A model generated the notes under the pieces. The model ran no database searches and was not told where the DNA came from. It saw only the letters and a list, made by a program, of their open reading frames with translations. From the IMG/VR virus record IMGVR_UViG_2675903278_000003: a stretch of 27,747 bases of DNA. The stretch is one strand, 5' to 3'. Below, piece by piece: positions 2,733-23,727 of the stretch (positions are counted from its first letter, which is position 1; the number at the start of each line of letters is the position of its first letter). The DNA is from a virus. Lineage: Duplodnaviria; Heunggongvirae; Uroviricota; Caudoviricetes. Both the position numbers and the translations under genes were made by a program.

Positions 2733-3848
2733 TTAAATCCCTGCTTTTCTGAATACCTGTGCATCACGCTCACGGAGCTGCTTCAGCGTCAGCCATTCGC
2801 CTTTATCGGTGTAAAATTCATCTGGCGACATACCACCATCCCGAATCAGCTTTGCTCGGGTTTCCCCCACAATCTGTTTTTGTCTGGTGTAAGGCTGACG
2901 CAAAAACCATTCCCTGTAGGTTGTATCTCCGGCCACCACGCCATCCATGCTGGCCCGCTCAGCCGGGGAAATATCGCGAACATCAATACCCAGTTCCTTC
3001 GCTGATTTCAGAATGAACGTTTCCGTTGAGCGGCAGCAGAAATGAATTTTTCCCGGCCCCTGCAAATAAGGCACGCTGTGACCTACAGGTTTATTATTCA
3101 GCGTATATTTGAGGCGATCCCTGATTCGACATTGTGGCGTAGTACGATTATCAAGCGTTGATAACCATTGCTTACCCTTAATCAAATCATTATTCGCGCT
3201 GGCAAAACTCTCACGGGCAGTAGCAGCAAGATGTCCAACCGCTGTTTTTGCAATGCTGGCCGCATTAGCCCGGCTCATCTGCAATGCACCATCCTGAAAT
3301 CCCTTACTGACATGTCCCCGAATTTTTCTTGCGATCTGCTCATTGGTATCCCCCAGCAAAAAACCCTGACGCACTGTATTTGTTATGCGTCTGAGCCGAT
3401 CCGCCTCAAGATCTGAGGCCCACTCACTGAGCAGTCGTCCCTGGAATGGTCGCGCCATTGCAGCGGCATAAAGTGCATCAGGAGAGATACCAACCAGAGG
3501 GTGAACATCAGCAACAAAATCAGGTAGCATAGAATCAAACAGACTTAACTGATAACCAGCCTCATAAATTGCCAGCTCGTTCAGCTCTCCGGAGAGACTG
3601 GTAAACATGCTGTTAATAGCAGTGCGGTTAACCTTTCTGACGCTCGCCAGAAGTGACTCCAGGCGCTTAACGGTAAAATTACCTGGATCGAGGCTGTCCA
3701 GTGCTATCAGCAGGCGAGCAGTAAGTTCCGCATCGCTGTCATTCAGTATTTTCACCATTCTGGCAGCCACGCCAGTGCTATAGCGGGATATCCAGACTGC
3801 ATGAGCAATTGATTCATCACGCAGCCGTTCATTCACGGTTTGCATCAT
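2733..3848 (-). CDS. Phage head morphogenesis protein, Mu gpF / SPP1 gp7-like minor head protein
   Basis: 371-aa ORF containing '...LSTLDNRTTPQCRIRD...', the hallmark motif I recall for the Mu F-like head morphogenesis family; located directly after the portal gene and overlapping its stop by 20 nt. Confidence 0.75.
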   Translation of the reverse strand: MMQTVNERLRDESIAHAVWISRYSTGVAARMVKILNDSDAELTARLLIALDSLDPGNFTVKRLESLLASVRKVNRTAINSMFTSLSGELNELAIYEAGYQLSLFDSMLPDFVADVHPLVGISPDALYAAAMARPFQGRLLSEWASDLEADRLRRITNTVRQGFLLGDTNEQIARKIRGHVSKGFQDGALQMSRANAASIAKTAVGHLAATARESFASANNDLIKGKQWLSTLDNRTTPQCRIRDRLKYTLNNKPVGHSVPYLQGPGKIHFCCRSTETFILKSAKELGIDVRDISPAERASMDGVVAGDTTYREWFLRQPYTRQKQIVGETRAKLIRDGGMSPDEFYTDKGEWLTLKQLRERDAQVFRKAGI

Positions 3849-5235
3849 TGATTTCCATCAGCATTACACTCTGATTTTTTAATTCATCGATCACTTCCTC
3901 TGGACGGGAATCCTGATCGATAAATTTCAACGCCTGCAACACCCGAACCGCATCAATCTGACGTATATCACCGCCCTGACGCAATGACTGAACAGCCAGC
4001 GCGGAGGATGAGTCAAACACCTGGGCAGATACATCCAGTTCAGTGCGCACATCCACATTGCCACCGCAACTCTCTCCGATCCATTCCGCCATTATCTGGA
4101 GAATATTATCGAGGGCATCTTCGAGGGAGTTCGCCATTGTATAAAGCGGCGAGTTTTCCTGCATTCGCTCTTCATTAGTCTGATCAACAGATTTGGTGGA
4201 TGTATTTTCAGCACGCAGAAGTTTAGCGCCGGCATGACGCATCTGATTTTCCAGCTTCTCAAGTGATGTTTCGCCAGATTCAATCGCTGCGCCACTATGT
4301 TCAACATATTCGAGGCCATTTTTTGTTCTGTCCTCAAAAATCGTAGCGGTGGATGCACCAACCGTCAGTTCTTCATTCCTGTCCAGCCCGTAGGCCACCA
4401 GCAATGGAACGCGGGCAACATGAAGAATATTGTCCTGCTCGCTCTGGCTTTGCCAGTGCTTGATATTCAGCAAGCCAAGATTAAGCAATGGCGGTGTACC
4501 ACGCATAAATCCTGTTTTCTTCGTGTACAGTGTTACCAGAGGAATATCATCACGGCTGGTATTCCATGACTCATGAAGCGTCCAGACAGATTCGCCATTA
4601 GTGCCTTCGCTACGTCGATAAATTTCAACTCGACGGGGCATAATATGGCGGATCTGCTCCACCTTCTTCTGCCCGAAATCATCACCATCAATAATGATGA
4701 CCTCTTTTATACGCAAATCAGTGAGAACAACTTTCCCTTTTTCAACTTTCGATTTCCATCCAATAACCTGGCGTGGATTCAGCATCGTAACGTACGGACG
4801 ACCACCGGTCGCGTTTTCATCGGCTTTTGTACGAATCTCTTTCATATCCGTTCGTGGGTAGTCCACCAGCGCATGTGCCACACCATACTGAAATGCGAGG
4901 CTGAAAAATTGCTGCGCCCACACATCCAGTCGGCTCCCCTCCATGTCGATATTTTCTGCATATTCCCTGATTTTTGCCGGCGTTTCCTCACTCAATACTG
5001 TCGGCTCTGCAAATATGCGCCCAATATTTTGCTTGATGCTTTCTTCATACACAGGAAGTAGCGTAGCCACAGACAGGCGTTTTTTATAAGCGTCTTCATC
5101 TTCGTTAGGCCATTTTGGGAGATAATTTTCCCCCTGCCTGCGCATTTCAAGCGTACCGCCCATCAGTGCGTCGTTAATATCCCACGCCTCCAGCATATCG
5201 TTATAGTCGAGGTTGGGTGTTGATATATCAGCCAT
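3829..5235 (-). CDS. Portal protein
   Basis: 468-aa ORF starting 3 nt after the TerL stop, acidic C-terminal region; position between large terminase and MuF-like gene. Confidence 0.7.
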   Translation of the reverse strand: MADISTPNLDYNDMLEAWDINDALMGGTLEMRRQGENYLPKWPNEDEDAYKKRLSVATLLPVYEESIKQNIGRIFAEPTVLSEETPAKIREYAENIDMEGSRLDVWAQQFFSLAFQYGVAHALVDYPRTDMKEIRTKADENATGGRPYVTMLNPRQVIGWKSKVEKGKVVLTDLRIKEVIIIDGDDFGQKKVEQIRHIMPRRVEIYRRSEGTNGESVWTLHESWNTSRDDIPLVTLYTKKTGFMRGTPPLLNLGLLNIKHWQSQSEQDNILHVARVPLLVAYGLDRNEELTVGASTATIFEDRTKNGLEYVEHSGAAIESGETSLEKLENQMRHAGAKLLRAENTSTKSVDQTNEERMQENSPLYTMANSLEDALDNILQIMAEWIGESCGGNVDVRTELDVSAQVFDSSSALAVQSLRQGGDIRQIDAVRVLQALKFIDQDSRPEEVIDELKNQSVMLMEINDANRE

Positions 5236-5237
5236 AA

Positions 5238-6548
5238 TTAAATCCGAAGTGATGTGACTCTTCCGGTCGGTTTGACAATAGGGAATTGCTTAACGATGAA
5301 ATAACCTCCGGCATCATTCGGGTGATCATTGCCAGATTTTTTATCAGGCTCCCCCTTCTCATCCCAGACCTGTTGCTCCAGAGATTCGGCATATAACGGG
5401 CAACGCTTCACATTAACTTTATAGCGACGCTCACCATTGGCATTGCAGAACATTGCATTCATTGAGTTAACGCGATCTTTTACTGGCGGGTTCGAGCTGT
5501 TCACCACAACGTTAAAACCAGCCTGCTTAAGCTGGGCTATATCCGTCGTACTTGCGTTACTTGATTTTCTGGAATCCCCGGAAGCATCTGGATAAATATA
5601 AATTTCCCTCACTTTCCGGTAATCATTCCCATCATACAGCCAGAAGCGTTCTTTAATGATGCGGATCATATCCGGCGTATCGTAGGCATTGATGATTTCA
5701 GTTACCGCACATGGAAGCCCCAAACGCAGCACATGGACGATTCCCGCCATCTTTCCAACGTTAAAATCCATCCCAATATAAATCGGCTCCCCTGGCTGCT
5801 CCACTTCTTCGCAATTATTCAGTTTCCGGTCAAACTGATGGTAAACAGTACCACTTGTCAGGTTAGTAAACTGTCCTCGAAGATAGGCTTTAATCAGCTC
5901 TGGAGGGTATGATTCAAGAAGCGAAGGAATGTAATCTGCTGGCAGGTTCTTTTCATTATCGAAAGTAGATGCCTGCACCAGACCATACAGTGAGGCCAGC
6001 TCTGTTTTTTCACGCACGGCTTTAACAAACTGCTCGTAGACAAATTTGAATCCTTCCGGCGTGGTTGTAACGTCAATACCGTTGCGAAGTCCATCAATCT
6101 TATAACGCATACGTGCAATTATCTTGCGCCACGCCGTTCTGGCTTTTTCCTTCGGCAAAATGTCCAGTTCATCCACCAACGCATTACCAATTTTGAAACC
6201 GACGATCGTTTGTGGCTTCTCCATCGATCTGCAGATAGTGGTTCCCCGATACTGGCGTCCGTAATAAAAGTGAACCTCTTTATTTCCCTCATTAATTTTT
6301 ACGTTCAATCCCCAGTCAGCAGCAACTTCTTCCACTGTAGGGTAAAAAATATCGCGAATTTGGGGATACGTTGGCGCAAAATATCCCTGATTTATACCTG
6401 GATGCTCCCAAATCCCCTTGCATATGCCGCCACACCCAACCCATATTTTGCCCGAGCCAAAACCAGCAATATAGGCTTTAAATTTATGGGGCATTGAAAG
6501 AAATCGCGCCTGAGGCACATTAAGCGTCGGAGAGATCATCTTCATCAC
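5238..6548 (-). CDS. Terminase large subunit (alternative start at about 6539, MISPTL...)
   Basis: 436-aa ORF with N-terminal P-loop-like 'AYIAGFGSGK' and a C-terminal acidic nuclease-like region (IYIGMDFNVG...DASGDS); immediately follows the small-subunit gene. Confidence 0.8.
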   Translation of the reverse strand: MMKMISPTLNVPQARFLSMPHKFKAYIAGFGSGKIWVGCGGICKGIWEHPGINQGYFAPTYPQIRDIFYPTVEEVAADWGLNVKINEGNKEVHFYYGRQYRGTTICRSMEKPQTIVGFKIGNALVDELDILPKEKARTAWRKIIARMRYKIDGLRNGIDVTTTPEGFKFVYEQFVKAVREKTELASLYGLVQASTFDNEKNLPADYIPSLLESYPPELIKAYLRGQFTNLTSGTVYHQFDRKLNNCEEVEQPGEPIYIGMDFNVGKMAGIVHVLRLGLPCAVTEIINAYDTPDMIRIIKERFWLYDGNDYRKVREIYIYPDASGDSRKSSNASTTDIAQLKQAGFNVVVNSSNPPVKDRVNSMNAMFCNANGERRYKVNVKRCPLYAESLEQQVWDEKGEPDKKSGNDHPNDAGGYFIVKQFPIVKPTGRVTSLRI

Positions 6549-9658: not shown

Positions 9659-11134
9659 TTAGGAGCGCCAAAAAAAACCTGAAAACAATATAATAACAGG
9701 ATAAATTTCAAGGCGACCAAGAATCATAGCTATGCACATTAAACATTTTGCAATGTCATTAAGCACTCCGAATGACGATGCAGTAGCCCCAAAACCTAAT
9801 CCCATATTATTAATACATGCAGCCACTGTTGCAAATGATGTAAGAAAATCATATCCCATACCATTTAACACCAGTATAAAAAACACCGTGAAGAGAGTAT
9901 AAAGAAAAAAGAAACTCCATACAGACCTCATTACACGATCTGTAACTATCTTCCCTCCTACATTTACACTCAACAACGCTCTGGGATGAGAAAGCTGATT
10001 TATCTCGTGTTTGCTTTGTTTGAAAAGTATAAGAAATCGAAGTGACTTAATTCCACCACAAGTTGAACCTATACATCCCCCAAAGAAACTTGACAACAGC
10101 AAAAACACTATCGTGTGCGTGGGCCAACTTGCATAATCCTGCGTAGCTAAACCATTATCAGTGAGCATGGAGCTGGCAAGAAAAAACGAATGAATAAAAC
10201 TTCCATGCAAGTCATACATACCTATATGCCAGACCTGGAAAGAGGTAACAATGATCACCCCTAAGGCTATTAACAGAAAGAAACGAAGTTCAATATCTCT
10301 GATTAAAGGTTTTATCGTTTTCCTGCTAATAACAATATACCAAAGAGTGAAGTTGAAAGCCGATAGCAGGGAAAAAGAACCAGCCACCAGCTCAACCAAA
10401 TAGTTATTAAAATATCCGATACTCTCGCTATGAGTTGAGAAACCACCAAGCGAAACTGTGGAAATCCCGTGACAAATAGCATCAAACAAAGGCATTCCTG
10501 CAAGTCTATAACAGACAATACAAGCAATACCTAATAAAGAATAAGTTATCCACAGTGTCCGTGACGTATCGGCCAGGCGGGGAGTGAGTTTGTCATCCTT
10601 AAATGGCCCCGGCATTTCTGACTGATAAAGCTTTGCACCACCAATACCCAATAATGGCAATACAGCAACCGCCAGAACAATAACTCCTAAACCACCTATA
10701 AAATTTAACTGTGACCGATAGTACAAATATGCCCGAGGTAATGAACTAACATCATCAATTACAGTTGCTCCTGTTGTTGTTATTCCAGAAACCCCTTCAA
10801 ACAGAGCATCAATGAACGTTAAATTAAGTTCTGAGTCAATCCATAAAGGGAATGCACTAATAACAGAAAACAAAATCCAAAACATTACAATTATAATAAA
10901 CCCATCACGGGTACGTAATTGAATGCCAGATTTCTTAGTTGTATACCACGCTCCGCCACCAATGCAAAAAAATATAACGAAAGTTATAAAGAAAACGAAC
11001 AGGCTTTTTTCTTTATAAAACAATGCTACAACCATTGGTGGCAACATTGAAAGACTATAGAGCCAAACCAGGAACCCACACATATGAGTAACAACTCTTA
11101 CATGAGATGTATTCATATCTAAATATTCTTTCAA
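9659..11134 (-). CDS. trkG: TrkH/TrkG-family potassium uptake protein (prophage-borne, TrkG-like)
   Basis: 491-aa multi-TM protein with repeated glycine-rich selectivity-filter-like segments (GITTTGATV, GGLGV, GGFST, GFGAT); markedly AT-rich compared with neighbouring phage genes; sits directly after Rz/Rz1 as trkG does in the E. coli K-12 Rac prophage. Confidence 0.85.
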   Translation of the reverse strand: MKEYLDMNTSHVRVVTHMCGFLVWLYSLSMLPPMVVALFYKEKSLFVFFITFVIFFCIGGGAWYTTKKSGIQLRTRDGFIIIVMFWILFSVISAFPLWIDSELNLTFIDALFEGVSGITTTGATVIDDVSSLPRAYLYYRSQLNFIGGLGVIVLAVAVLPLLGIGGAKLYQSEMPGPFKDDKLTPRLADTSRTLWITYSLLGIACIVCYRLAGMPLFDAICHGISTVSLGGFSTHSESIGYFNNYLVELVAGSFSLLSAFNFTLWYIVISRKTIKPLIRDIELRFFLLIALGVIIVTSFQVWHIGMYDLHGSFIHSFFLASSMLTDNGLATQDYASWPTHTIVFLLLSSFFGGCIGSTCGGIKSLRFLILFKQSKHEINQLSHPRALLSVNVGGKIVTDRVMRSVWSFFFLYTLFTVFFILVLNGMGYDFLTSFATVAACINNMGLGFGATASSFGVLNDIAKCLMCIAMILGRLEIYPVIILFSGFFWRS

Positions 11135-11718: not shown

Positions 11719-12212
11719 TGCTGACCCCACAAACAGATTTCACGCTCAATCTCACGACGAGTCATGAGACCTTTCCATTGCTTACCGCCAGCATATGTCC
11801 AGCGACGTAGCTGATCACATGCGCCTTTGATATCGCCCTGGTTTATTTTGCGAAGAAGCGTCGATGTTCTGAAATTGCCAGCACCCACGTTGTAAACGAA
11901 TGAGTAAAGAGCGCCGCGCGTTGTTTCCGGTATATCGACTTTGATGTACGGGTTAATTTGTCTGGCGACCGTGGCAAGGTCTTTATTCAGGAGGGCTTTG
12001 CATTCTGCTTTGGTATACGTTTTACCGAGCATGATGTCTTTTCCTGTATGCCCGTGACATACAGTCCATACACCAACAATATCTTTGTATGGTATGTAGC
12101 TGACACCTTCCAGACCATCGTTACCACTTGGGCCAGTGATTAACACTGATGCTATAGCAATTGCTCCGCCACCAATAGCAGCAGCAACGACTTTTCGTAA
12201 TGATGGAGGCAT
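11715..12212 (-). CDS. R: SAR (signal-anchor-release) endolysin, phage 21 R-like lysozyme
   Basis: 165 aa; N-terminal weakly hydrophobic Gly/Ala-rich SAR segment '[20 protein letters not shown]', then lysozyme-like domain; ATG overlaps the holin stop (TAATG). Confidence 0.85.
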
Positions 12213-12427
12213 TATTCACCTCTCGCAGCCTTGCGCTTATCTTCTTTAATCTTGAAATAAAGGTTTGTCAGGTACGTCAGCAGGCCAAATACCAGACTAC
12301 CCAGCACACCGATTGCAGCCCACTGTGACGGAGTTACTCTATCGAGCAACTGTAAAAACCAGTAGCCAGCACTGCCTGCGGAGGTGCCGTAGGCAATGCC
12401 TGTTGAAATTTTGTCCATGGATTTCAT
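12212..12427 (-). CDS. S: Class II pinholin, phage 21 S-like, with dual-start motif
   Basis: SD 'GGAGGTGA' then ATG AAA TCC ATG GAC (M-K-S-M-D...) at 12427; [71 protein letters not shown] closely matches my recollection of S21 (71- and 68-residue forms); the ORF-track start at 12484 is an upstream in-frame extension. Confidence 0.85.
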
Positions 12428-12526: not shown

Positions 12527-12552
12527 AATATAAAAAGCTCGCCGTAGCGAGC
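12527..12552 (-). terminator. Putative intrinsic terminator between the lipoprotein genes and the holin
   Basis: Hairpin 'gctcgc-cgta-gcgagc' (12537-12552) followed on the minus strand by 'TTTTTATATT'. Confidence 0.45.
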
Positions 12553-12678
12553 TAATAAAATGTATTTCTCTGATATTATGTTTATTTGTATTAGCTCAGA
12601 CTTGACATCACAGGTTTCGTATATAGAACATCATCAAATCTGTCAGTTTGCTATGAATGAGATATAGTAATTGAAGAG

Positions 12679-13074
12679 CTAACCTCGCATGTCAAAGCCA
12701 GATTTCTGAAAATCTCTGTAGACTTCCGGATTGTTGAAGGCCGGAAATTTGGCTTTATGAGCTGCGGACTTTATCGCTTCGCAATAGGCTTTATCACCGT
12801 TACTGGTAGATATTTTTAACGCCGTGCCATCCTGAGAGAATTCCATATGCAACCTGCATTTTTTCCCTTTCCAGTTATGCGGCTCATCAAGTTTGGCATT
12901 AATTGCAGCTCTGATTCCCCGCGCTTGCGCCCCCCATTCATCCTGATCATCCCAGCGTCCTGAACTGCAACTACCTGTAGCAGTAGTTTTGTGGCAATCT
13001 GAAGGGTGTAAAGGTGTGCATCCCGCAACAAAACCGCCCCAAAAAGTCAACATAACGATTTTCTTTAATCCCAC
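12679..13074 (-). CDS. Predicted lipoprotein A (131 aa, GTG start), paralogue of the adjacent gene
   Basis: SD 'GGAG' 6 nt upstream of GTG at 13074; signal peptide with lipobox 'FVAGC'; C-terminal region 'KKCRLHMEFSQDGTALKI...AYCEAIKSAAHKAKFPAFNNPEVYRDFQKSGFDMRG' aligns with the C-terminus of the 13225-13653 product. Confidence 0.7.
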   Translation of the reverse strand: MGLKKIVMLTFWGGFVAGCTPLHPSDCHKTTATGSCSSGRWDDQDEWGAQARGIRAAINAKLDEPHNWKGKKCRLHMEFSQDGTALKISTSNGDKAYCEAIKSAAHKAKFPAFNNPEVYRDFQKSGFDMRG

Positions 13075-13224
13075 TTCTTGCTCCTCAATCCATTAAAATC
13101 TCAGCAATAGTAGTTGTTACGTCCGCCACTGGCTCAGAGCTGACTATCCGCTAAATTTAGCTCAGTGCCGTAGCTGTGTCAGAACAAACCTAAGCCGAAA
13201 CCGTTTATTACAAAACAATAAATA

Positions 13225-13653
13225 TCAGGGTTTAAAATCCAGCACCCCATTTTGAAATACTTTATATACTTCCGGCGAAGGGGGGGCAGGTATATCAGCA
13301 TTCTTTATCGCATTCATCGCTTCACGACATAAATCGAGGTCTCCACTTTCTCTTTTAACCTCCAGTAGAAGGCCATTCGGGGCCATATGCATTCTCAGTG
13401 TACACTCTTTTCCTGAATACTTACTCGCATCCCCGAACTGTTTTTCGATGGCGCTCTTGATTTGATGGGCATACAGACGGATATCCTCACTAACATCAGA
13501 AGTACGTTCAGATGAACTCACATACTGTGTCTCTATTGCTTTATCGGAGTAATATGATGTACGGTCATGATAATTTGTCGATACAGCATCAGTGCACCCG
13601 ATAATAATCCCACTAATAATCAACGTAAGAATTGATGCGCTACGAAAACCCAT
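13225..13653 (-). CDS. Predicted lipoprotein B (142 aa), paralogue of the adjacent gene
   Basis: SD 'GAGGA' upstream of ATG at 13653; signal peptide with lipobox 'IIGC'; C-terminal 'KECTLRMHMAPNGLLLEV...DLCREAMNAIKNADIPAPPSPEVYKVFQNGVLDFKP' parallels lipoprotein A. Confidence 0.7.
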   Translation of the reverse strand: MGFRSASILTLIISGIIIGCTDAVSTNYHDRTSYYSDKAIETQYVSSSERTSDVSEDIRLYAHQIKSAIEKQFGDASKYSGKECTLRMHMAPNGLLLEVKRESGDLDLCREAMNAIKNADIPAPPSPEVYKVFQNGVLDFKP

Positions 13654-14240
13654 TTTTCCTCACATATGTCATATAGTAAAGGATTATATATACCGTTGTT
13701 TTGGACGCTCAAACAGCGAATCAGATCAAATAAAACGCACATTTGTTAACATTTACACAAAGTCTGCGTGGGATATTCTGAAAGAATATCCATAATGTGG
13801 AGAGAATCTATTGAAGTGCATGGTGCCGGGTGCCTCCCGGTGAACAAAATGTTCGTGATACCTGTCGGCGACAGAAAAGGTTAATGGTATCACCCCACCG
13901 CACAGGGGGATTCACCATGCAGGAGTTTTCTTAGCAAACTCACTGCGCGCCCGGCAACTCCCAACCACATAAAATGCGGAGTTTGTGGTATTTATGCATA
14001 TAACTCGCAGGAATTATCTTAAAAAACTGATGTCGATCCGGATTAAAAAGAAGCAGGTCATCATCAGATGACTGGAAAAAAGGAAAACAAAAAATACTCA
14101 TCATACAGTTTTGATTGCAGGGATGAGCCTGCTATGCACAATATGCAGAATATAAGCAAGATAAAAATATGCAGGCATATTATTTCGGATTTTGTTATTA
14201 ACACAACCTTTTTAATAATCATTTGGCATACAATAAACCA

Positions 14241-14270
14241 GCCCAAAAAGAACCGCCTAAACAGGCGGTT
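14241..14270 (-). terminator. Putative intrinsic terminator in the Q-to-lysis leader region
   Basis: Hairpin 'aaccgcct-aaac-aggcggtt' (14251-14270) followed on the minus strand by 'CTTTTTGGG'. Confidence 0.5.
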
Positions 14271-14590
14271 GGTCAATACAAAGGATGCTTCGTCTTTATT
14301 ATAGTAATCTGAGGCGTCGGGTGTCTTGTATCAGACAACATATTGTCCCGCTAAACAGCGAATTACAAACCACCCTGCAATGATCTCTCATCTCATTTTA
14401 TATGAGTTGACGACATCAGGATAACGCATCATCAGCCCCTGCCAAGAAATATCAAAACTCCCGCCAGCAATGTGTTATCACAATATTGTAAAAAAAACAC
14501 AGCACCGAAACTATAACTGGTCTCTGTTATAATTTGGAGCAGAAAGACCAGTTGCCCAACTAGCAGCATTCTCCCCTGCTTTCCTGACGT

Positions 14591-14617
14591 AAAAAAACCG
14601 CATTAAGCGGTTTTTTT
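14591..14617. terminator. Bidirectional intrinsic terminator just downstream of the Q-like gene (tR'-like position)
   Basis: 'aaaaaaa-ccgcattaagcgg-ttttttt': GC stem flanked by an A-run and a T-run, so it can terminate on either strand; lies about 80 nt downstream of the Q-like stop, where lambdoid phages place tR'. Confidence 0.65.
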
Positions 14618-14697
14618 ACGATGTCCATGTCTGCAATCCGCCTCGCGATACAGCTTTGCGAAGCATAGCAAAATTGAAGCAGTTTATACGTAAGAAA

Positions 14698-15240
14698 TCA
14701 AGCCATTTTCTCAGCAAATGATTCACGCATGGGAATATATAGGGCATACTCAGCAACAGCTAACCAATTAGCAATCCGTTTTTCGCATGTGCTAAAACAC
14801 CACTCTGGGTGTGCATCATTTAGCAATTCAGCCATTTTGCGCTTAGTCATCCCCCGCCCTTCATAGCGTTGCCGGAGAATGCAAATCAATCCTGGATGCT
14901 CTGCCAGCACCTCACTTATGACTCGATCAATACATAACGCCTCTGCATCAGTACAATGCGCCAGCCAGCTCTTTTGCTTGCCGTTGATCATCTCTCGCAA
15001 AAACGCTTCCAGCTCAGCTTTCTCTATTCCCGCTTTTTTCATTCTGCGCAGGGCTTCATTAATGGCTGTTTTCGTCAGTTTTTTGGATGCCAACAACTGA
15101 TTGAACATATTCCCTGACCTGCCACCGCCAATATACGACCAGCGCCCCCACATACGTAGTTTTCCCTGAATCCAGACACTTTCCAGCGTGGTGAGGCGAA
15201 GGTGTTCTCCGCTTTTTCCTGTATTCGTTGGGTAAATCAT
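14698..15240 (-). CDS. Late-gene antiterminator Q-like protein (phage antitermination Q family, not lambda-Q type)
   Basis: 180-aa ORF immediately upstream of a terminator and the lysis cassette; 'GKLRMWGRWSYIGGGRSG' and a Cys-containing region resemble the QuuD/phage-82-type Q family as I recall it; position is the strongest evidence. Confidence 0.55.
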   Translation of the reverse strand: MIYPTNTGKSGEHLRLTTLESVWIQGKLRMWGRWSYIGGGRSGNMFNQLLASKKLTKTAINEALRRMKKAGIEKAELEAFLREMINGKQKSWLAHCTDAEALCIDRVISEVLAEHPGLICILRQRYEGRGMTKRKMAELLNDAHPEWCFSTCEKRIANWLAVAEYALYIPMRESFAEKMA

Positions 15241-16594: not shown

Positions 16595-16750
16595 TTACTC
16601 CTCAGGTTCGTAAGCTGTGAAGACAGCGACCTCCGTCTGACCGGTTCGGATTCGCACCTCGCAGAGGTCTTTCCTCGTTACCAGTGCCGTCACTATGACG
16701 GTTAAACAGATGACAATCAGTGCGACTAACATCGCCTTTTGCTGCTTCAT
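16595..16750 (-). CDS. hok: Hok-family type I toxin (HokD/RelF-like), 51 aa
   Basis: MKQQKAMLVALIVICLTVIVTALVTRKDLCEVRIRTGQTEVAVFTAYEPEE is near-identical to my recollection of E. coli HokD/RelF; 3' hairpin 'ggcgagggatttctccctcgcc' (16564-16585) and a 9-bp-stem hairpin in the leader (about 16850-16890) fit hok mRNA architecture; the ORF-track start at 16807 is an in-frame upstream extension. Confidence 0.85.
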   Translation of the reverse strand: MKQQKAMLVALIVICLTVIVTALVTRKDLCEVRIRTGQTEVAVFTAYEPEE

Positions 16751-16961
16751 AGCCTGCTTCTCCTTGCCTTCCGGCGCGTAAGAGGCTAACCTACATGTGC
16801 AAAGCATGAAATTGGCCTCAGATTAATGTTAAGCGTCTTGCCGGACGCGTAATGTTATCTGGGGCTTTTCTCTATCTGCCTTTGGTGTTCATGCCTGAGG
16901 CAGATAGCCTCAAGCACCCGCAGCAATTCTACTTAACTCCCGTCACCTCGCCAATATAAAA

Positions 16962-17470: not shown

Positions 17471-18670
17471 ATGCCATTTGTTATTTATGTGTTTACTATC
17501 AGTGCCTTTGCGCTCGGACTCGCGGAATTTGTCCCCATTGGGCTGACAGACGTTATGGCTCAGGGGTTGTGTGTGGGTGTGGAGCAGACCGGGGCAGCGG
17601 TTACAACCTATGCACTGGGGGCAACGTTCGCGGCACCCGTACTGTCTGCGCTGACAGCAAGCTGGAGCCGGAAAAATGTAATGCTTACAACTGCCGTTGT
17701 GTTTACTGCCGGTAGTCTGGCGGCCGCGTTTGCAGCCACATTACCTCAGCTCCTGTTAGCGCGGTTCATTGCTGGTCTGGGACACGGCCTGTTTCTGGCT
17801 GCGGCATCCAGTACCGCAGCTCGTCTTGCTGGACCGGGTAAAGCAGGCAGAGCGGTGGCTGTGGTATTTGGTGGCTTTACTCTGGCGATGGCAATCGGCG
17901 TACCGCTGAGTACATGGTTGGGGGGGGTGGTCTCATGGCGTCCAGTTCTCGGCGCTATTGCCGCTTTTGGCGCGTTCGGATTCCTTGGACTGTTGTTCGG
18001 TATGAAAGATCCCGTACGCAGCGTGCCCGGTGAACATAGTGACTCAGCAATGCAGAATATCGGCATGCTGTTTAACCGTAAGTTGCTGGCCGGCGCGCTG
18101 GTTACGGTGCTGGCGTATGCAGGCTCGTTTACGGATTACACCTTTATCGCACCTATTCTGACGCAGGTGACAGGGGTTACCGGAGCAACGGTGAGTCTGT
18201 TTATGCTGGTTTACGGTATTACAGCTGCGGTAGGTAATATTCTTGGTGGGAAACTTACCGACAGCATGGGGGTTAATCGTGCCAATATACTCATCATTAG
18301 CGGCATTGTTGTTGTCGTGCTTGGTATGTGGCTGCTGTCATCCTCACCGGTGAGCATGGGCATTCTGGTTGCGCTGCTGGGTATGGTGACATTTGCCGCA
18401 GTGCCGGCACTGCAGGCCCGTCTGATTGGTGTCGCTGAGCAACATGCTCCTCATGCGCATGGTGTTGCTGCCGGCCTGAATATTGCGGGCTTCAACTCAG
18501 GTATAGCGCTGGGATCAGTACTGGGCAGCATTACTATAAGCCACGCCGGTATCGTGTATACCGGTATCAGCGGTGCGATTGTTTCTCTGCTCGGCCTGCT
18601 GTTGCTGCTTGCACAAATCCGTCGCAGCCACAGTCGTAAATTTCAACAGGTTAAAATCGTAGGCCAGTAA
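17471..18670 (+). CDS. MFS-superfamily transporter (12-TM type)
   Basis: 399-aa hydrophobic, Gly/Ala-rich protein; SD 'CAGGAG' upstream of ATG; first gene of the cargo block. Confidence 0.8.
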   Translation: MPFVIYVFTISAFALGLAEFVPIGLTDVMAQGLCVGVEQTGAAVTTYALGATFAAPVLSALTASWSRKNVMLTTAVVFTAGSLAAAFAATLPQLLLARFIAGLGHGLFLAAASSTAARLAGPGKAGRAVAVVFGGFTLAMAIGVPLSTWLGGVVSWRPVLGAIAAFGAFGFLGLLFGMKDPVRSVPGEHSDSAMQNIGMLFNRKLLAGALVTVLAYAGSFTDYTFIAPILTQVTGVTGATVSLFMLVYGITAAVGNILGGKLTDSMGVNRANILIISGIVVVVLGMWLLSSSPVSMGILVALLGMVTFAAVPALQARLIGVAEQHAPHAHGVAAGLNIAGFNSGIALGSVLGSITISHAGIVYTGISGAIVSLLGLLLLLAQIRRSHSRKFQQVKIVGQ

Positions 18671-18681
18671 AGGGAGGTTAT

Positions 18682-19374
18682 ATGCTTACCCGTGAAAATA
18701 TGCTTAATGGCACATTTGTCAGGGTGCATGAAGCGCTGCTCCCGGCGAATATGCTCTGGGACGCTGAAAAAATACGCGCATCAATGAACTCTACTCTGGA
18801 GGAGCGCCCGACGGGTGCTCCTGTCTGGATATTTGCCTACGGGTCATTGATGTGGAATCCCGTGCTGGCGATTGAAGAAATGCAACGGGCCCGTCTGAAA
18901 GGATGGCAGCGCAGTTTCTGCATTCGTTTGATATCCGGACGAGCGACTCCTGATGTCCCCGGCAGGATGTTATCGCTCGACGAAGGTGGAATTACCGAAG
19001 GTATTGCGTTCAGACTGCCGGAATCGACTCTTATTAATGAGCTGGAAATTGTCTGGACGCGCGAGATGATAACCGGTCTTTACCGTCCGGTCTGGGCAGA
19101 CGTTTCGCTAGGAAACGGTGAGGAAATTCAGGCGCTGGCTTTCGTATCAGACAGACTGCATCCGCATTATGAACAGGACAATCTTACAGCGACCGTAGCG
19201 TTGAGCATCGCATCTGCCCGTGGAGACATTGGCACGAATGCAGATTATGTATGGAAACTGCAGGCCACTCTGGGTGCGTTGGGAATACGGGATGATTACG
19301 TGAGTGAACTGGCCCTTGCTCTGCATGAGGCTCCCTGTAACGATAAACTTCATCAGCGAGGCGCTTCACTATGA
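18682..19374 (+). CDS. ChaC-like gamma-glutamylcyclotransferase family protein
   Basis: 230 aa with 'VWIFAYGSLMWNP' (YGSL motif characteristic of the ChaC/GGCT family); SD 'AGGGAGG' upstream; 11 nt after the MFS stop. Confidence 0.75.
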   Translation: MLTRENMLNGTFVRVHEALLPANMLWDAEKIRASMNSTLEERPTGAPVWIFAYGSLMWNPVLAIEEMQRARLKGWQRSFCIRLISGRATPDVPGRMLSLDEGGITEGIAFRLPESTLINELEIVWTREMITGLYRPVWADVSLGNGEEIQALAFVSDRLHPHYEQDNLTATVALSIASARGDIGTNADYVWKLQATLGALGIRDDYVSELALALHEAPCNDKLHQRGASL

Positions 19375-20252
19375 GCCATCTGAGCCATCTGCGAACGTTT
19401 CTTGAGGCCTATCGCTCTGGCTCCTTTTCAAAGGCGGCAGAACTACTGGGCATCACTCAGCCCGCGGCGTCACAGCATATCCAGTCTCTTGAGACTCTGG
19501 TTGGTAAGCGTCTGTTTATCAGGCAGGCCAGAGGCGTGACGGCAACCGAAGCTGCGGATGAGCTTGCCCGCTCAGTTTCACCCTTCATTGATGGTCTGGA
19601 AGAAAAGCTGTCCTCTTTCCGGTCAGGCTCTGTACGCGGGGGAACAATTAATCTGGCAGGACCGCCAGATTTTATTCATTCCCGGCTTGGGACAGTAATG
19701 GCTCCACTAATGAAGGAGGGGTATCGCCTACGCTTTCATACCGGCAATAAGCAACGTATTTATTCCCTTTTGCATGACGGGAGCGCCGATCTCGCTGTTA
19801 CCGCATCTATGCCTGATGACCGTCTGTACGGCTATGCACATCTACTGACTGAACGCATGCTCCTTGTTCATGCTCCCGCCATGTCAGAGATCATCGGATC
19901 AGAACCTGGTGCTGAAACGCTTGCCTCATTACCGCTGATTGCTTATGACGAAGAGTTGCCACTGATTAGAGCGCTCTGGGCCTCCATGTTTCAGAGAGCC
20001 CCTGAGATGCAGGCTACATTCACCATTCCGGATTTACGTATTATCCGCGACTTGGTCTGTGACGGCCACGGGTGGACAGTGCTGCCGGATTATCACTGTG
20101 ACAATGACCTGAAAAGTGGTCGCCTGATTTCAGTGACACCTGCAGACCTCGCTCCGACTAATCATCTTTATCTGGTCTGGAACAAAAGGACGGCTAATAA
20201 CAGCCGAACCGCCTATGTTCGGGATTACATTCTTAAAACGTTTCCGCGTTGA
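19371..20252 (+). CDS. LysR-family transcriptional regulator
   Basis: N-terminal HTH 'LRTFLEAYRSGSFSKAAELLGITQPAASQHIQSLE' then a substrate-binding-like domain; ATG overlaps the ChaC-like stop (ATGA); the first codons contain a 9-bp tandem duplication 'agccatctgagccatctg' (SHLSHL). Confidence 0.8.
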   Translation: MSHLSHLRTFLEAYRSGSFSKAAELLGITQPAASQHIQSLETLVGKRLFIRQARGVTATEAADELARSVSPFIDGLEEKLSSFRSGSVRGGTINLAGPPDFIHSRLGTVMAPLMKEGYRLRFHTGNKQRIYSLLHDGSADLAVTASMPDDRLYGYAHLLTERMLLVHAPAMSEIIGSEPGAETLASLPLIAYDEELPLIRALWASMFQRAPEMQATFTIPDLRIIRDLVCDGHGWTVLPDYHCDNDLKSGRLISVTPADLAPTNHLYLVWNKRTANNSRTAYVRDYILKTFPR

Positions 20253-20296
20253 TGTTTGAAACGGATGATTGGCGATGCGTATCATAAGTTACGTAT

Positions 20297-20326
20297 GTCC
20301 GCTTCTGGCACAAAGCAGACGCCCAC
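20297..20326. repeat. 30-bp repeat copy 1 ('gtccgcttctggcacaaagcagacgcccac'), partner at 23970-23999
   Basis: 24 of 30 positions identical to the copy at 23970-23999 by eye, with an exact shared core 'ttggcacaaagc' / 'ctggcacaaagc'; lies in the convergent intergenic region between the LysR and DUF2254-like genes. Confidence 0.55.
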
Positions 20327-20382
20327 TCTCACGCGAATGCTTTGCCCTTGACTTGCCAACAACCGTATCGCTTGCTCCGCAA

Positions 20383-21675
20383 CTATGGTTTTTTATTAGA
20401 ATCTTCGCCACTAAATAAATTATAATAAATTGATTTTATTAGATATCTGTCAGAATCTATATGGTCAGCACGAGTAGCATGCTCTAATGTTTCAAATGCT
20501 AGGGTTTGTGCGGCTTCAGCAAAAATTCCAGGCCAACCCTTACTCAGCATCGACAGTCCTTTAAGTACCCTTATCTGAATTTCCCTCATACTGGCACCAT
20601 CGCGCGCAACAGGTGAGAAAAAGTCTTCAAGTAGATCGTTATTCTGAAGTGGTGCAACATGTACAGAAGGATATTTCACTTCTATTTCATCAGATTTATT
20701 CTGCGCGTAAGCGGAAAGTATACGTACACCTCTGCCAATGACATCAATGGCGGTTCCAGGATCGTTCACTGCGGGGGAAAGGGCTCGGCAGGCTATTTCG
20801 GCCATGACGCTAAGACAAAATCGGGGGTCCTGAGCAAATGAACGTACATCCGAGACAATAATCGTCTCAAGTAAATCGGTGCTGATTGATGACTCCTGGC
20901 CCTGACTCAGGTACAAAACTGGCGTGGACGGATGTATGAAACTGCCCGGCTGCGCCACGAGGTATACATGACGGGGATCATTGGTCAGCAGCTTGCTGAG
21001 TTTCACCATATCAACATATTCAACATAGCCAATCTTTTTCGGATAAACTGCAACCGTTCCTTTCGGCTGTTCATTGTTCTCAAGCCATGGATATCCGCCG
21101 AGACAGGGATTTCTTGCTCTCGCAATAAATGTTTCGATGGCCGCCTGTTCTACTTTTGCCGTTGTCTCACCAACCCTCCCCAGAGAGGTCAAATGCTGTA
21201 TCCAGCGAAGCAATGTGATGAGGATTAAGGCAATGACAACCAGTGTTACAATGAATAAAATGACTCTCCCCCTTTCTCCATAAGCTCCCATATTGAGGGC
21301 AATAATCCCTACCAGACTGAAGAGAAAAGAACCGATGAAGGTGGCCAGTACATTTTGTGTGGTGACGTCTTCAACAACTAAACGAGTAGCTCTGGGAGTC
21401 ACATTAGTAGTGGCTGAACCGTAGGCTGTGACCATGATGCTCAGCGAAAATGTGGTCACTGCCAGCATACTCGATGCCAGTATGTTCAGAATGTTATCGA
21501 CTGCTTCCGCACCAACCTTCACGGAAACCGACTCAGGTATCATTGATTTAAAAAGAATTGATAAAAGGGCCGTTATTATTGCGACAATTGCGAATAACGT
21601 TGCCCTGAACCATAGTTTTTTAAATGTCTGCTTCAGCATCCATTTCCAGCGTGAAATCATTCTGCATTCCCTCAT
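20383..21675 (-). CDS. DUF2254-like membrane protein (N-terminal TM helices plus large soluble domain)
   Basis: 430-aa ORF with about four N-terminal hydrophobic helices; family name from memory; start may be at the internal Met (MISRWKW...). Confidence 0.6.
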   Translation of the reverse strand: MRECRMISRWKWMLKQTFKKLWFRATLFAIVAIITALLSILFKSMIPESVSVKVGAEAVDNILNILASSMLAVTTFSLSIMVTAYGSATTNVTPRATRLVVEDVTTQNVLATFIGSFLFSLVGIIALNMGAYGERGRVILFIVTLVVIALILITLLRWIQHLTSLGRVGETTAKVEQAAIETFIARARNPCLGGYPWLENNEQPKGTVAVYPKKIGYVEYVDMVKLSKLLTNDPRHVYLVAQPGSFIHPSTPVLYLSQGQESSISTDLLETIIVSDVRSFAQDPRFCLSVMAEIACRALSPAVNDPGTAIDVIGRGVRILSAYAQNKSDEIEVKYPSVHVAPLQNNDLLEDFFSPVARDGASMREIQIRVLKGLSMLSKGWPGIFAEAAQTLAFETLEHATRADHIDSDRYLIKSIYYNLFSGEDSNKKP

Positions 21676-21723
21676 ATTGCAGCCGGGATAAATAAATGCC
21701 GCCTCTGTGGCGGCATGTTGCTG

Positions 21724-23727
21724 TTAACGAACCAGATGCAGGAAGTGCAGGTGTTTTTCGTACTGGTCCAGTATGTCATTAATCAGCTGTTCCTGATTCC
21801 AGCCCATTACATCATAATTTTGGCCGCCCTCTTTGAGATAGACTTCAGCGCGATAATATCGATGTTGTTCACTCTGCTGCTCATCATTATCCAGCGCAGC
21901 GAGCGCGAAGGTCGGTGAGTTATACCCGCGAAGCCTCACTTCATATATATAATTCAGCTCGTTGCCCAAATCGACTTCAAGGCGAATACGATCCTCGGCG
22001 GCGTCACTGATGTGGCTTATCGTTCCCTGCTTGTTAAGTTCCTCCTGAACCAGCGTCATGGCGGGTTGGATAATGTCGTCCATAAAACGTTTCACAAGAG
22101 AGCGCTTCGGCAAATACGCGATATTGCGTAACCTTCTCTGCCAGGGAATTGGGTTACGTGCAGCCGTAGGAGCAATAGTCGCCATGCTAAGGCTTTCACG
22201 CTTGGTCAAATCCCGACGCAGGGCTTTTAACAGTCCGTATATGGATATTAATAAGATAACTGAGAAGGGCAATGCACTCGCTATCGTTACGGTTTGCAAC
22301 GCACTCAGCCCCCCTGCGATCAGCAGGGCAATAGCAACAACGCCCATGAGCGATGCCCAGAAAATTCGCTGCCAGACGGGCGTGTTTGCCACCCCACCTG
22401 ATGCCAGAGTATCCACAACCATTGCCCCCGAATCAGCAGACGTTACAAAGAAGACGATGACCATCGCCATTGCAATGAATGACAGCACGGAAGAGAACGG
22501 GAAATGCTCCAGGAAATTAAACAGGGCAAGCGCAACATCCTGCTGAACGGTATTGGCGAGGTCAGTGGCGCCCTGGTTCATGATGAGATAGATGGCGCTG
22601 TTTCCAAACACCGTCATCCACATGAGCGTAAAGCCGGCGGGAACAAACAACACGCCAGTCACGAACTCACGAATTGTCCTGCCGCGGGAAACGCGTGCAA
22701 TGAACATACCTACAAACGGCGACCATGAAAGCCACCATCCCCAGTATAATAATGTCCAGCCCCCCAGCCAGTTGCTCGACTTGGGTTCATACGCGTAAAG
22801 GTTGAACGTTTTACTCACCAGTTCCGACAGATAACCACCCGTATTTTCCACAAATGACTTCAGCAGAAGCACAGTGGGACCCAGGCACAAGACCAGCGCC
22901 AGGAGCAACACCGCCAGGCCCAGATTAAGCTCAGACAGGATGCGTATTCCCTTGTCCAGGCCGGACACCACCGAAATCGTCGCTAACCCCGTGATGACCA
23001 CGATCAAAATGACCTGTACCGTTTCATTGATGGGCACGCCGAAAAGATGGTTCAAACCGGCATTCACCTGCAATACACCGTAACCCAGCGATGTTGCAAC
23101 GCCAAAGACAGTGCCTATCACGGCGAAGATATCAACCGCGTGGCCTATAGGCCCGTAAATGCGATCGCCGATAATGGGATAGAGCGCAGAACGCAGCGTT
23201 AAAGGCAGACCGTGACGGTAACTGAAAAAGGCCAGAATCAGCGCCACGATGGCATAAATTGCCCATGCGTGCAGACCCCAGTGGAAGAACGTCAGGCGCA
23301 TGGCTTCCTTCGCTGCCGCAACGGTCTCTGGAGTGCCGACAGGTGGCGAAAGATAATGCATCACAGGTTCGGCAACGCCAAAGAACATCAGGCCGATCCC
23401 CATCCCTGCCGAAAAAAGCATCGCGAACCAGGAGTGGTAGCTGAAATCAGGCTGCGCATGGTCTGGGCCCAGCTTTATATCACCGTAACGTGAGAGTCCA
23501 AGGAACGTGACGCTCAGTAAAATCAGGGCCACAGCAAGTATGTAGAACCAGCTGGCATTCGTGAAGATTTGTTGCTGAAGTAGTTTAAAATTTTTGTCGG
23601 CGACATCCGGGAATACGGCGGCAAAGGCGACAAGAAGGAAAATTAGCAAAGCAGATGTAAAGAATACCGCTTTGTTAATCTGGCTTGTAGACTTCTTTGG
23701 GGTTGTATCATTTTCACTCATAATCAT
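21724..23727 (-). CDS. BCCT-family transporter (BetT/BetU-like choline or glycine-betaine transporter)
   Basis: 667 aa, multi-TM with Trp-rich segment 'GGWTLLYWGWWLSWSPFVGMFIARVSRGRTIREF' typical of BCCT transporters, long hydrophilic C-terminal tail. Confidence 0.85.
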   Translation of the reverse strand: MIMSENDTTPKKSTSQINKAVFFTSALLIFLLVAFAAVFPDVADKNFKLLQQQIFTNASWFYILAVALILLSVTFLGLSRYGDIKLGPDHAQPDFSYHSWFAMLFSAGMGIGLMFFGVAEPVMHYLSPPVGTPETVAAAKEAMRLTFFHWGLHAWAIYAIVALILAFFSYRHGLPLTLRSALYPIIGDRIYGPIGHAVDIFAVIGTVFGVATSLGYGVLQVNAGLNHLFGVPINETVQVILIVVITGLATISVVSGLDKGIRILSELNLGLAVLLLALVLCLGPTVLLLKSFVENTGGYLSELVSKTFNLYAYEPKSSNWLGGWTLLYWGWWLSWSPFVGMFIARVSRGRTIREFVTGVLFVPAGFTLMWMTVFGNSAIYLIMNQGATDLANTVQQDVALALFNFLEHFPFSSVLSFIAMAMVIVFFVTSADSGAMVVDTLASGGVANTPVWQRIFWASLMGVVAIALLIAGGLSALQTVTIASALPFSVILLISIYGLLKALRRDLTKRESLSMATIAPTAARNPIPWQRRLRNIAYLPKRSLVKRFMDDIIQPAMTLVQEELNKQGTISHISDAAEDRIRLEVDLGNELNYIYEVRLRGYNSPTFALAALDNDEQQSEQHRYYRAEVYLKEGGQNYDVMGWNQEQLINDILDQYEKHLHFLHLVR

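Follow-up and report, generated by a model that had tools for sequence, protein, structure and literature searches.

Domain III of TolA (TolAIII; approximately residues 334 to 421 of Escherichia coli TolA, with the structures 1TOL, 1S62, 2X9A, and 3QDP/3QDR) is the shared entry handle of filamentous phages and of a large group of colicins. The domain is the hub for the TolB N terminus, for the N1 domain of filamentous-phage g3p/pIII (M13/fd and IF1), and for colicins A and N, all of which dock by beta-strand addition. Its dissociation constant is approximately 40 µM for the TolB N terminus and approximately 1 µM for Ff-phage g3p-N1 and for colicin N; g3p-N1 and colicin N add to strand beta3 of TolAIII, and colicin A binds beta2 (PMC4339652, PMC3365938, PMC7391070). 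Filamentous phages exploit this contact for superinfection exclusion, in which periplasmic pIII-N1 sequesters TolA, resulting in a drop of approximately 4 logs in phage uptake and in resistance to colicin A (PMC10424213). An exported TolAIII also perturbs the system, since E. coli overproducing a signal-sequence-fused TolAIII leaks periplasmic proteins (PMC6195910, citing Wan & Baneyx 1998). Small lipoproteins are also known from mobile elements, where Bor, Cor/Llp, and TraT/TrbK are encoded outside the core modules and are thought to alter the envelope for the benefit of the carrier; Cor and Llp target the outer membrane receptor FhuA. Here, we analyzed a 27,747-nucleotide stretch of viral DNA (IMG/VR record IMGVR_UViG_2675903278_000003; referred to below as the window), in which the Rac prophage of E. 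coli resides, and found that two adjacent genes on its minus strand, A and B, encode stand-alone TolAIII domains carrying a lipoprotein signal.

The original prediction for this region, made from the sequence without database searches, described two adjacent minus-strand lipoprotein genes whose products align in their C-terminal parts. Both points were borne out: the open reading frames and the lipoboxes are present (IIGC with Cys20 in A and VAGC with Cys19 in B), and the proteins, which share a homologous C-terminal domain of approximately 85 residues, can be aligned from end to end with 29% identity, well above chance level (BLASTP E = 5e-18). The view that the family could not be named does not stand, since both proteins match the TolA C-terminal domain (TolAIII) of Pfam (PF06519; gathering threshold, 25 bits), A with 82.6 bits (E = 2.4e-23) and B with 54.6 bits (E = 1.3e-14). 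Residues 55 to 142 of A align without gaps to the TolA C terminus (PDB 1S62, 1TOL, 2X9A, and 3QDP/R), collinear to the last residue and including the beta3 segment LDFKP, which is bound by g3p, colicin N, and TolB. A is 60.5% identical to residues 336 to 421 of E. coli TolA, and the identity of B to TolA is 33.8%. The AlphaFold models, whose domains have a predicted local distance difference test (pLDDT) score of approximately 90 in both proteins, superimpose on 2x9a_B in the case of A (TM-score, 0.96; root mean square deviation, 0.6 Å) and on 3qdp in the case of B (TM-score, 0.92; root mean square deviation, 1.1 Å). The fold is that of TolAIII, in which three helices pack against a sheet of three strands and the edge strand at the C terminus is exposed, with strands predicted at residues 135 to 140 of A and 126 to 130 of B. 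Moreover, the disulfide pair of TolA (Cys363-Cys388) is kept as C84/C109 in A and C73/C98 in B, and it is invariant in 22 homologues.

A match to a well-characterized family, which the original prediction had named as grounds for its refutation, therefore exists in part: the family is that of a domain, but the proteins themselves are not TolA. The NCBIfam TolA models match A and B at the C-terminal end only (positions about 265 to 387; the last ~95 to ~100). Both proteins score below the cutoff of NF007065 (213; A, 107.8 bits; B, 54.2 bits), and the cutoff of TIGR02794 (59.45) is passed by A alone (75.6 bits), via domain III alone. The architecture of full-length TolA is lacking, as there is neither the N-terminal membrane anchor (domain I) nor the long helical domain II; given these absences and the missed NF007065 cutoff, A and B are not TolA proper. 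What replaces domains I and II is a lipoprotein signal peptide followed by a short linker, so the domain would hang from the outer membrane and cannot transduce the proton motive force. No described function was found for them: the only Pfam matches are TolA and TonB_2, the PHROGs family is PHROG 5772 ("unknown function"), PADLOC gave no match, and a full-text search of the paper library available returned no functional work on TolAIII lipoproteins encoded by prophages or plasmids. The BFVD viral structure library contained no TolAIII-like fold. Bor and Cor had been named as examples of lipoproteins at this position, but A and B have no sequence similarity to the Bor, Cor/Llp, and TraT families and, including TrbK, no sequence or fold relationship with these lipoproteins. 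The TolAIII domain is textbook knowledge; what is uncharacterized is the lipoprotein-only architecture, a receptor domain redeployed on mobile elements.

Each of the two signal peptides is valid as a lipoprotein signal. Protein A is made up of a signal peptide (residues 1 to 19), the lipobox with Cys20 and a Thr at position +2, a disordered linker of approximately 34 residues, and the TolAIII domain (residues 55 to 142). Protein B, also with Thr at +2 after Cys19, has a conserved Cys-containing linker (C27 and C36) and a divergent TolAIII domain (residues ~45 to 130); the extra pair of conserved cysteines in the linker is a feature of the B lineage. Disorder is predicted for residues 1 to 49 of A (signal peptide and linker) and 1 to 26 of B (signal peptide and start of the linker). 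A signal-peptide check had been proposed, and the PROSITE PS51257 rule for lipoproteins is satisfied by both A and B (a Lys or Arg among the initial 7 residues, a hydrophobic stretch, and a lipobox pattern whose Cys falls at positions 15 to 35). The Asp at +2 that serves as the inner membrane retention signal is absent from both, and A and B are predicted to be anchored in the outer membrane and to face the periplasm. A search of 1.84 billion representative proteins yielded many further, distant proteins of 120 to 150 amino acids with the same lipoprotein-plus-TolAIII layout. Among these distant relatives, the PS51257 rule was passed by 41 of the 66 full-length short matches, and none of the 41 has Asp at +2. 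The linker of B (…SGRWDDQDEWG…) was also considered as a TolB box resembling that of colicin E9, and this was rejected, because distant relatives replace both Trp residues (e.g., GRFSDEDEYG) and the second Trp lies in register with Tyr340 of TolA, in helix alpha2.

Present genome annotation conceals both genes. In RefSeq loci L001 and L015, the NCBI Prokaryotic Genome Annotation Pipeline (PGAP) labels A as a pseudogene of 87 codons ("tolA, incomplete, missing N-terminus"), yet the 142-codon open reading frame is intact. In the case of B, PGAP places the start at Met8, whereby the charged n-region of the signal peptide is lost and the PS51257 rule is failed. The start codon of B must instead be the GTG that follows GAGGAG, since the plasmid homologues have an ATG at the exact codon of this GTG and a start at Met8 breaks the lipoprotein rule. 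Both PGAP calls are likely annotation artifacts that hide two intact lipoprotein genes.

The two genes had also been taken for a duplicated, paralogous pair. They are homologous, but a recent tandem duplication was rejected: A shares much more identity with TolA (60.5%) than with B (29%), the lineage of B is a distinct one, and A is found without B elsewhere. The A-type genes are limited to Escherichia and Shigella, and the B-type genes form a separate lineage with 78 to 89% identity across genera. Both genes are under selection, and in the B lineage the purifying selection is strong: the ratio of nonsynonymous to synonymous substitution rates (dN/dS) is 0.08 to 0.15 for B, with dS values of up to 1.1, and 0.29 to 0.39 for A. 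Variants of A that have diverged to 66% identity still keep the lipobox and the disulfide. B is an older relative that has diverged, and its ligand range is perhaps different.

To place A and B in their prophage, the features of the region are given below, from the highest to the lowest coordinates in the window.

14698..15240, minus strand: Q-like late antiterminator gene (phrog_753, "anti-termination protein Q-like," E = 2e-79; DUF1133 family protein in PGAP), the upstream boundary of the A/B slot
14298..14327, minus strand: promoter-like site AAGACA-18-TATAAT (consensus scan, 10/12 matches)
14251..14270, minus strand: intrinsic-terminator-like hairpin AACCGCC-TGTT-TAGGCGGTT followed by CTTTTT (sequence scan and fold test), candidate tR'
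13764..13950, minus strand: STnc100-family prophage small RNA element (Rfam RF02076, 86.6 bits versus a gathering score of 47), 110 nucleotides upstream of gene A
13683..13712, minus strand: promoter-like site TTGAGC-18-TATAAT (consensus scan, 10/12), a candidate moron promoter ~30 nucleotides before the start codon of A
13225..13653, minus strand: gene A, 142-amino-acid lipoprotein, ATG start
13075..13224, minus strand: A-B intergenic spacer of 150 nucleotides, with no terminator-like site (fold z-score, -0.83), carrying the Shine-Dalgarno sequence GAGGAG of B
12679..13074, minus strand: gene B, 131-amino-acid lipoprotein, GTG start
12536..12553, minus strand: strong intrinsic-terminator-like hairpin (AGCTCGC-TACG-GCGAGCT, then TTTTT) that separates B from the holin gene (fold z = -2.36)
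12212..12427, minus strand: holin gene essD (phrog_9876 and phrog_20 holin; essD in PGAP), which bounds the slot downstream and opens the lysis cassette

As seen, A and B occupy the moron position that had been proposed, between Q/tR' and the lysis cassette, with the phrog_753 gene upstream and the genes of the holin (essD), the endolysin (rrrD), and Rz downstream in this order on the minus strand; the predicted flanking terminator-like hairpins were likewise found (14270-14251 and 12553-12536). The site at 14298..14327 is a candidate for the late promoter pR', as it closely precedes the first terminator. The layout of the slot reads as moron-like, in that a promoter-like site directly precedes A, the two genes are not separated by a terminator, and a strong terminator stands ahead of the holin gene. 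Because the A-B spacer holds no terminator, the two genes are probably cotranscribed. Alignment of the regions upstream of A from two prophage backbones showed that homology ends beyond ~20 nucleotides, which neither supports nor refutes the promoter.

The surrounding element carries pinR, tfaR, ydaY, trkG, ydaT, sieB, and kilR, and the presence of trkG (9659-11134, minus strand), a potassium transporter gene that lies directly downstream of the Rz gene and is classic Rac cargo, confirms its identity as Rac. The element in the window is fuller than the Rac of strain K-12, and its late region is intact. The copy of the prophage in strain HS30-1 has truncated genes and IS1. Several other features of the element were observed. 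Approximately 6 kb of nonphage cargo (about 17471-23727) separates the hokD/sok locus from the replication genes and encodes an MFS transporter, a gamma-glutamylcyclotransferase, a LysR regulator, a DUF2254 protein, and a BCCT transporter; in HS30-1, ISApl1-mcr-1 comes after the matching cargo region. The sok antitoxin RNA (16745-16919, minus strand; Rfam RF01794, 116 bits) adjoins hokD, making up a type I toxin-antitoxin pair in the nin region. A known Q-proximal prophage RNA is isrK, and matches resembling it at 14536-14664 on both strands, just downstream of Q, were below threshold (E, 0.08 to 0.19; ~21 bits versus a gathering score of 50) and are probably due to chance.

Both gene types are common in E. 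coli. Among 5426 complete genomes, A-type genes were found in 898 and B-type genes in 1269, and copies with at least 99% identity were found in 782/5426 for A and 782/5426 for B, counted gene by gene and therefore not necessarily in the same genomes. A-type genes occupy the Q-to-holin interval in at least four different lambdoid backbones, and in several backbones other than the present one they occur there without B. One such lone A-type locus follows tRNA-Ile and tRNA-Arg and precedes nanS-p, which on the maps of Shiga toxin (Stx) phages is the slot of stx. In 80 IMG/VR prophage contigs, recovered by a scan for copies at 99 to 100% identity that informs on the constancy of the module and not on its diversity, all loci with sufficient flanking sequence hold both A and B. 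The block formed by STnc100, A, the spacer, B, the terminator, and essD is nearly constant in these loci, and of the 77 that carry B, 74 retain the spacer together with the module, while the Q/tR' and endolysin alleles vary, which identifies the block as a mobile cassette within the lambdoid mosaic. Among deposited phage genomes, only mEp460_ev081, a lab-evolved recombinant, carries A/B.

The STnc100 element is coinherited with A in other prophage backbones, with its spacing to A unchanged. The family is related to the PasD small RNAs, which are found near Q genes (bioRxiv 10.64898/2026.05.13.724894). The element is also present at positions 5704-5889 of loci L125 to L127, and several partial copies lie at 3000-5881 of locus L014; the extra partial copies flank cargo genes in other Q-holin regions. 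Since these extra partial copies flank cargo genes, the STnc100-like repeats may be recombination joints for the exchange of morons, or mRNA leaders.

The B-type genes are not confined to prophages. On I-complex plasmids of the IncB/O/K/Z type, B lies directly downstream of the relaxase gene nikB, and in PLSDB, 611 plasmids carry B compared with 875 carrying the associated nikB lineage (~70%). On pO157, the B-type gene sits beside a nikB relic, next to toxB. On the I-complex plasmids and pO157, the gene is located 68 to 158 nucleotides 3' of nikB in the same orientation (L003, 6001-6432; L004, 6001-6396; L013, 7001-7432), an arrangement that suggests cotranscription of plasmid B with the relaxosome operon. 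In the Enterobacter cloacae complex, a lone chromosomal B-type gene occupies a fixed, nonmobile locus. Chromosomal B-type genes were also found in Citrobacter, Klebsiella, Raoultella, Serratia, Leclercia, Lelliottia, Kluyvera, Buttiauxella, Pantoea, and Yokenella. B-like genes on 8-kb contigs (L100 and L102) were binned in metagenome-assembled genomes of Lachnospiraceae and Treponemataceae; these are most likely misbinned contigs of enterobacterial plasmids or phages.

We favor, tentatively and as the leading possibility, that A and B are moron decoys or competitors that give the lysogen tolerance to Tol-dependent phages and bacteriocins. The original prediction had guessed at superinfection exclusion or envelope protection, which can now plausibly be narrowed to Tol-dependent import. 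A would act as a faithful mimic of E. coli TolAIII. Because TolA domains I and II are missing, neither protein can be energized by TolQR, and without coupling to this motor a captured ligand would be a dead end for the invader. Tethered at the inner face of the outer membrane, the mimics would sit among the TolB-Pal complexes and incoming translocation domains, where they could intercept g3p or the translocation domains of group A colicins, or occupy TolB. The affinity of TolAIII for g3p-N1 and colicin N (~1 µM) compared with that for TolB (~40 µM) implies that a decoy could trap invaders preferentially. The mechanism would be the mirror image of exclusion by g3p/pIII: both would titrate the periplasmic contact between TolAIII and g3p or colicin, but A and B copy the receptor to titrate the invader, whereas pIII is the ligand and titrates the receptor; furthermore, a tailed-phage prophage and plasmids encode A and B, whereas pIII belongs to the filamentous phage itself. 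The proposed target, a periplasmic Tol step, also differs from the outer membrane receptor targeted by Cor/Llp.

Several observations fit with decoys of this kind. Protein A keeps 7 of the 10 beta3 residues, with LDFKP identical, as well as 11 of 16 residues of helix alpha2 and 2 of the 3 cation-pi lysines. The presence of B on plasmids and as a lone chromosomal gene points to a role in normal growth rather than at lysis only. Phage IF1 uses I-type pili as its receptor, and its g3p binds TolAIII (PDB 2x9a). The location of B on I-complex plasmids is consistent with a decoy in this respect, as IF1-type I-pilus phages prey on the very plasmids that carry B. Cells with periplasmic TolAIII are said, in work of Levengood-Freyermuth et al. 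from 1993, to be colicin tolerant and leaky.

Other observations weigh against decoys. The interface residues of A are 69 to 70% conserved, which is not clearly better than the 60.5% of the domain overall, so their conservation lends no independent support to ligand binding. The interface of B is poorly kept, with 4 of 16 residues in alpha2, 2 of 10 in beta3, 2 of 6 in the colicin A box, and 0 of 3 cation-pi lysines. The candidate promoter of A was identified only as a consensus match, and the upstream sequence differs between A contexts; both genes lie downstream of Q/tR' and would thus be transcribed late too. The chromosomal B of Enterobacter stands in ordinary metabolic neighborhoods, which could mean a housekeeping role in the envelope, and the PADLOC search gave no match for A or B. 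Finally, leakiness of the kind caused by overproduced periplasmic TolAIII, as described in PMC6195910, would be a cost. The recombinant protein described there resembles A and B in being an exported, stand-alone TolAIII that perturbs Tol-Pal, but it is artificial, soluble, and highly expressed, whereas A and B are predicted to be lipid anchored, each with a linker of its own, and their expression is probably low.

The late position of the genes raises the alternative that they sabotage the Tol-Pal system at the end of the lytic cycle. Driven strongly by pR' once Q has acted as antiterminator, A and B would bind the TolB N terminus and block the TolA-driven deposition of Pal, thereby loosening the outer membrane, promoting vesiculation, and aiding spanin-mediated lysis or the release of progeny. 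As they follow Q/tR', precede the holin gene, and share the same orientation, they would be on the late transcript; TolA beta3 mutants without TolB binding show a tol phenotype (PMC4339652), a review notes that vesicle production could be regulated by modulating the contacts of TolB with TolA or Pal (PMC7391070), and the release of periplasmic proteins upon overproduction of exported TolAIII, as relayed in PMC6195910, points in the same direction. However, a strong terminator between B and the holin gene and a promoter-like site before A are the layout of an independently expressed moron, and B-type genes are kept under strong purifying selection on plasmids and chromosomes that lack lysis genes. 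Moreover, the host is a Rac element, of which the HS30-1 copy has truncated genes and an IS1, yet A and B remain intact at ≥99% identity in hundreds of genomes. We consider such late sabotage unlikely. We give slightly less weight again to the reading that B, and by extension A, is an endogenous factor of envelope homeostasis, an accessory or regulator of Tol-Pal or of the peptidoglycan network that mobile elements carry for envelope robustness or host fitness. The fixed chromosomal B locus amid metabolic genes in the Enterobacter cloacae complex would agree with it, as would the occurrence of B-type genes in at least 11 enterobacterial genera with dN/dS values of ~0.1 and the existence of dozens of distant lipoprotein-plus-TolAIII families of 120 to 150 amino acids. 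Nevertheless, E. coli gains A and B only via prophages and plasmids, no conserved partner gene or operon surrounds the B-type genes, and A, a near-copy of the TolAIII of its host, looks more like a mimic than like a protein with a new housekeeping activity.

Two further explanations carry much less weight. A and B could be host-interaction or virulence lipoproteins of the Bor/TraT type, acting in serum resistance or adhesion and unrelated to the Tol pathway; a moron position is typical of such factors, and a B-type gene lies next to toxB on pO157. This is very unlikely given the lack of similarity to Bor, Cor, or TraT and a predicted topology that is periplasmic and not surface exposed, and the relic nikB beside the pO157 copy indicates ancestry in the plasmid backbone and not in a virulence island. 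That A is merely a truncated, functionless copy of tolA undergoing decay, as its PGAP label implies, is hardly credible: its open reading frame of 142 codons is intact, with a Shine-Dalgarno sequence, a signal peptide, and a lipobox, it is kept at ≥99% identity in 782 genomes, its 66% variants retain lipobox and disulfide, and its dN/dS is below 0.4.

Returning to the decoys, A and B may be members of a widespread and unrecognized class of immunity factors, a proposal that we put forward with more reserve than the decoy function itself. These would be TolAIII receptor mimics anchored in the outer membrane and encoded on lambdoid prophages (A), on I-complex plasmids and pO157 (B), and on enterobacterial chromosomes, protecting their carriers against Tol-dependent filamentous phages, including IF1, and against group A colicins, cloacins, and klebicins; high late expression might also tune vesiculation. 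If this is true, a natural mobile decoy would be a new route to bacteriocin and phage tolerance, spread by prophages and plasmids. It could account for differences between strains in their sensitivity to colicins and phages, which would be relevant to colicin- and phage-based antimicrobials, and the proteins would be natural tools to probe the Tol-Pal cycle.

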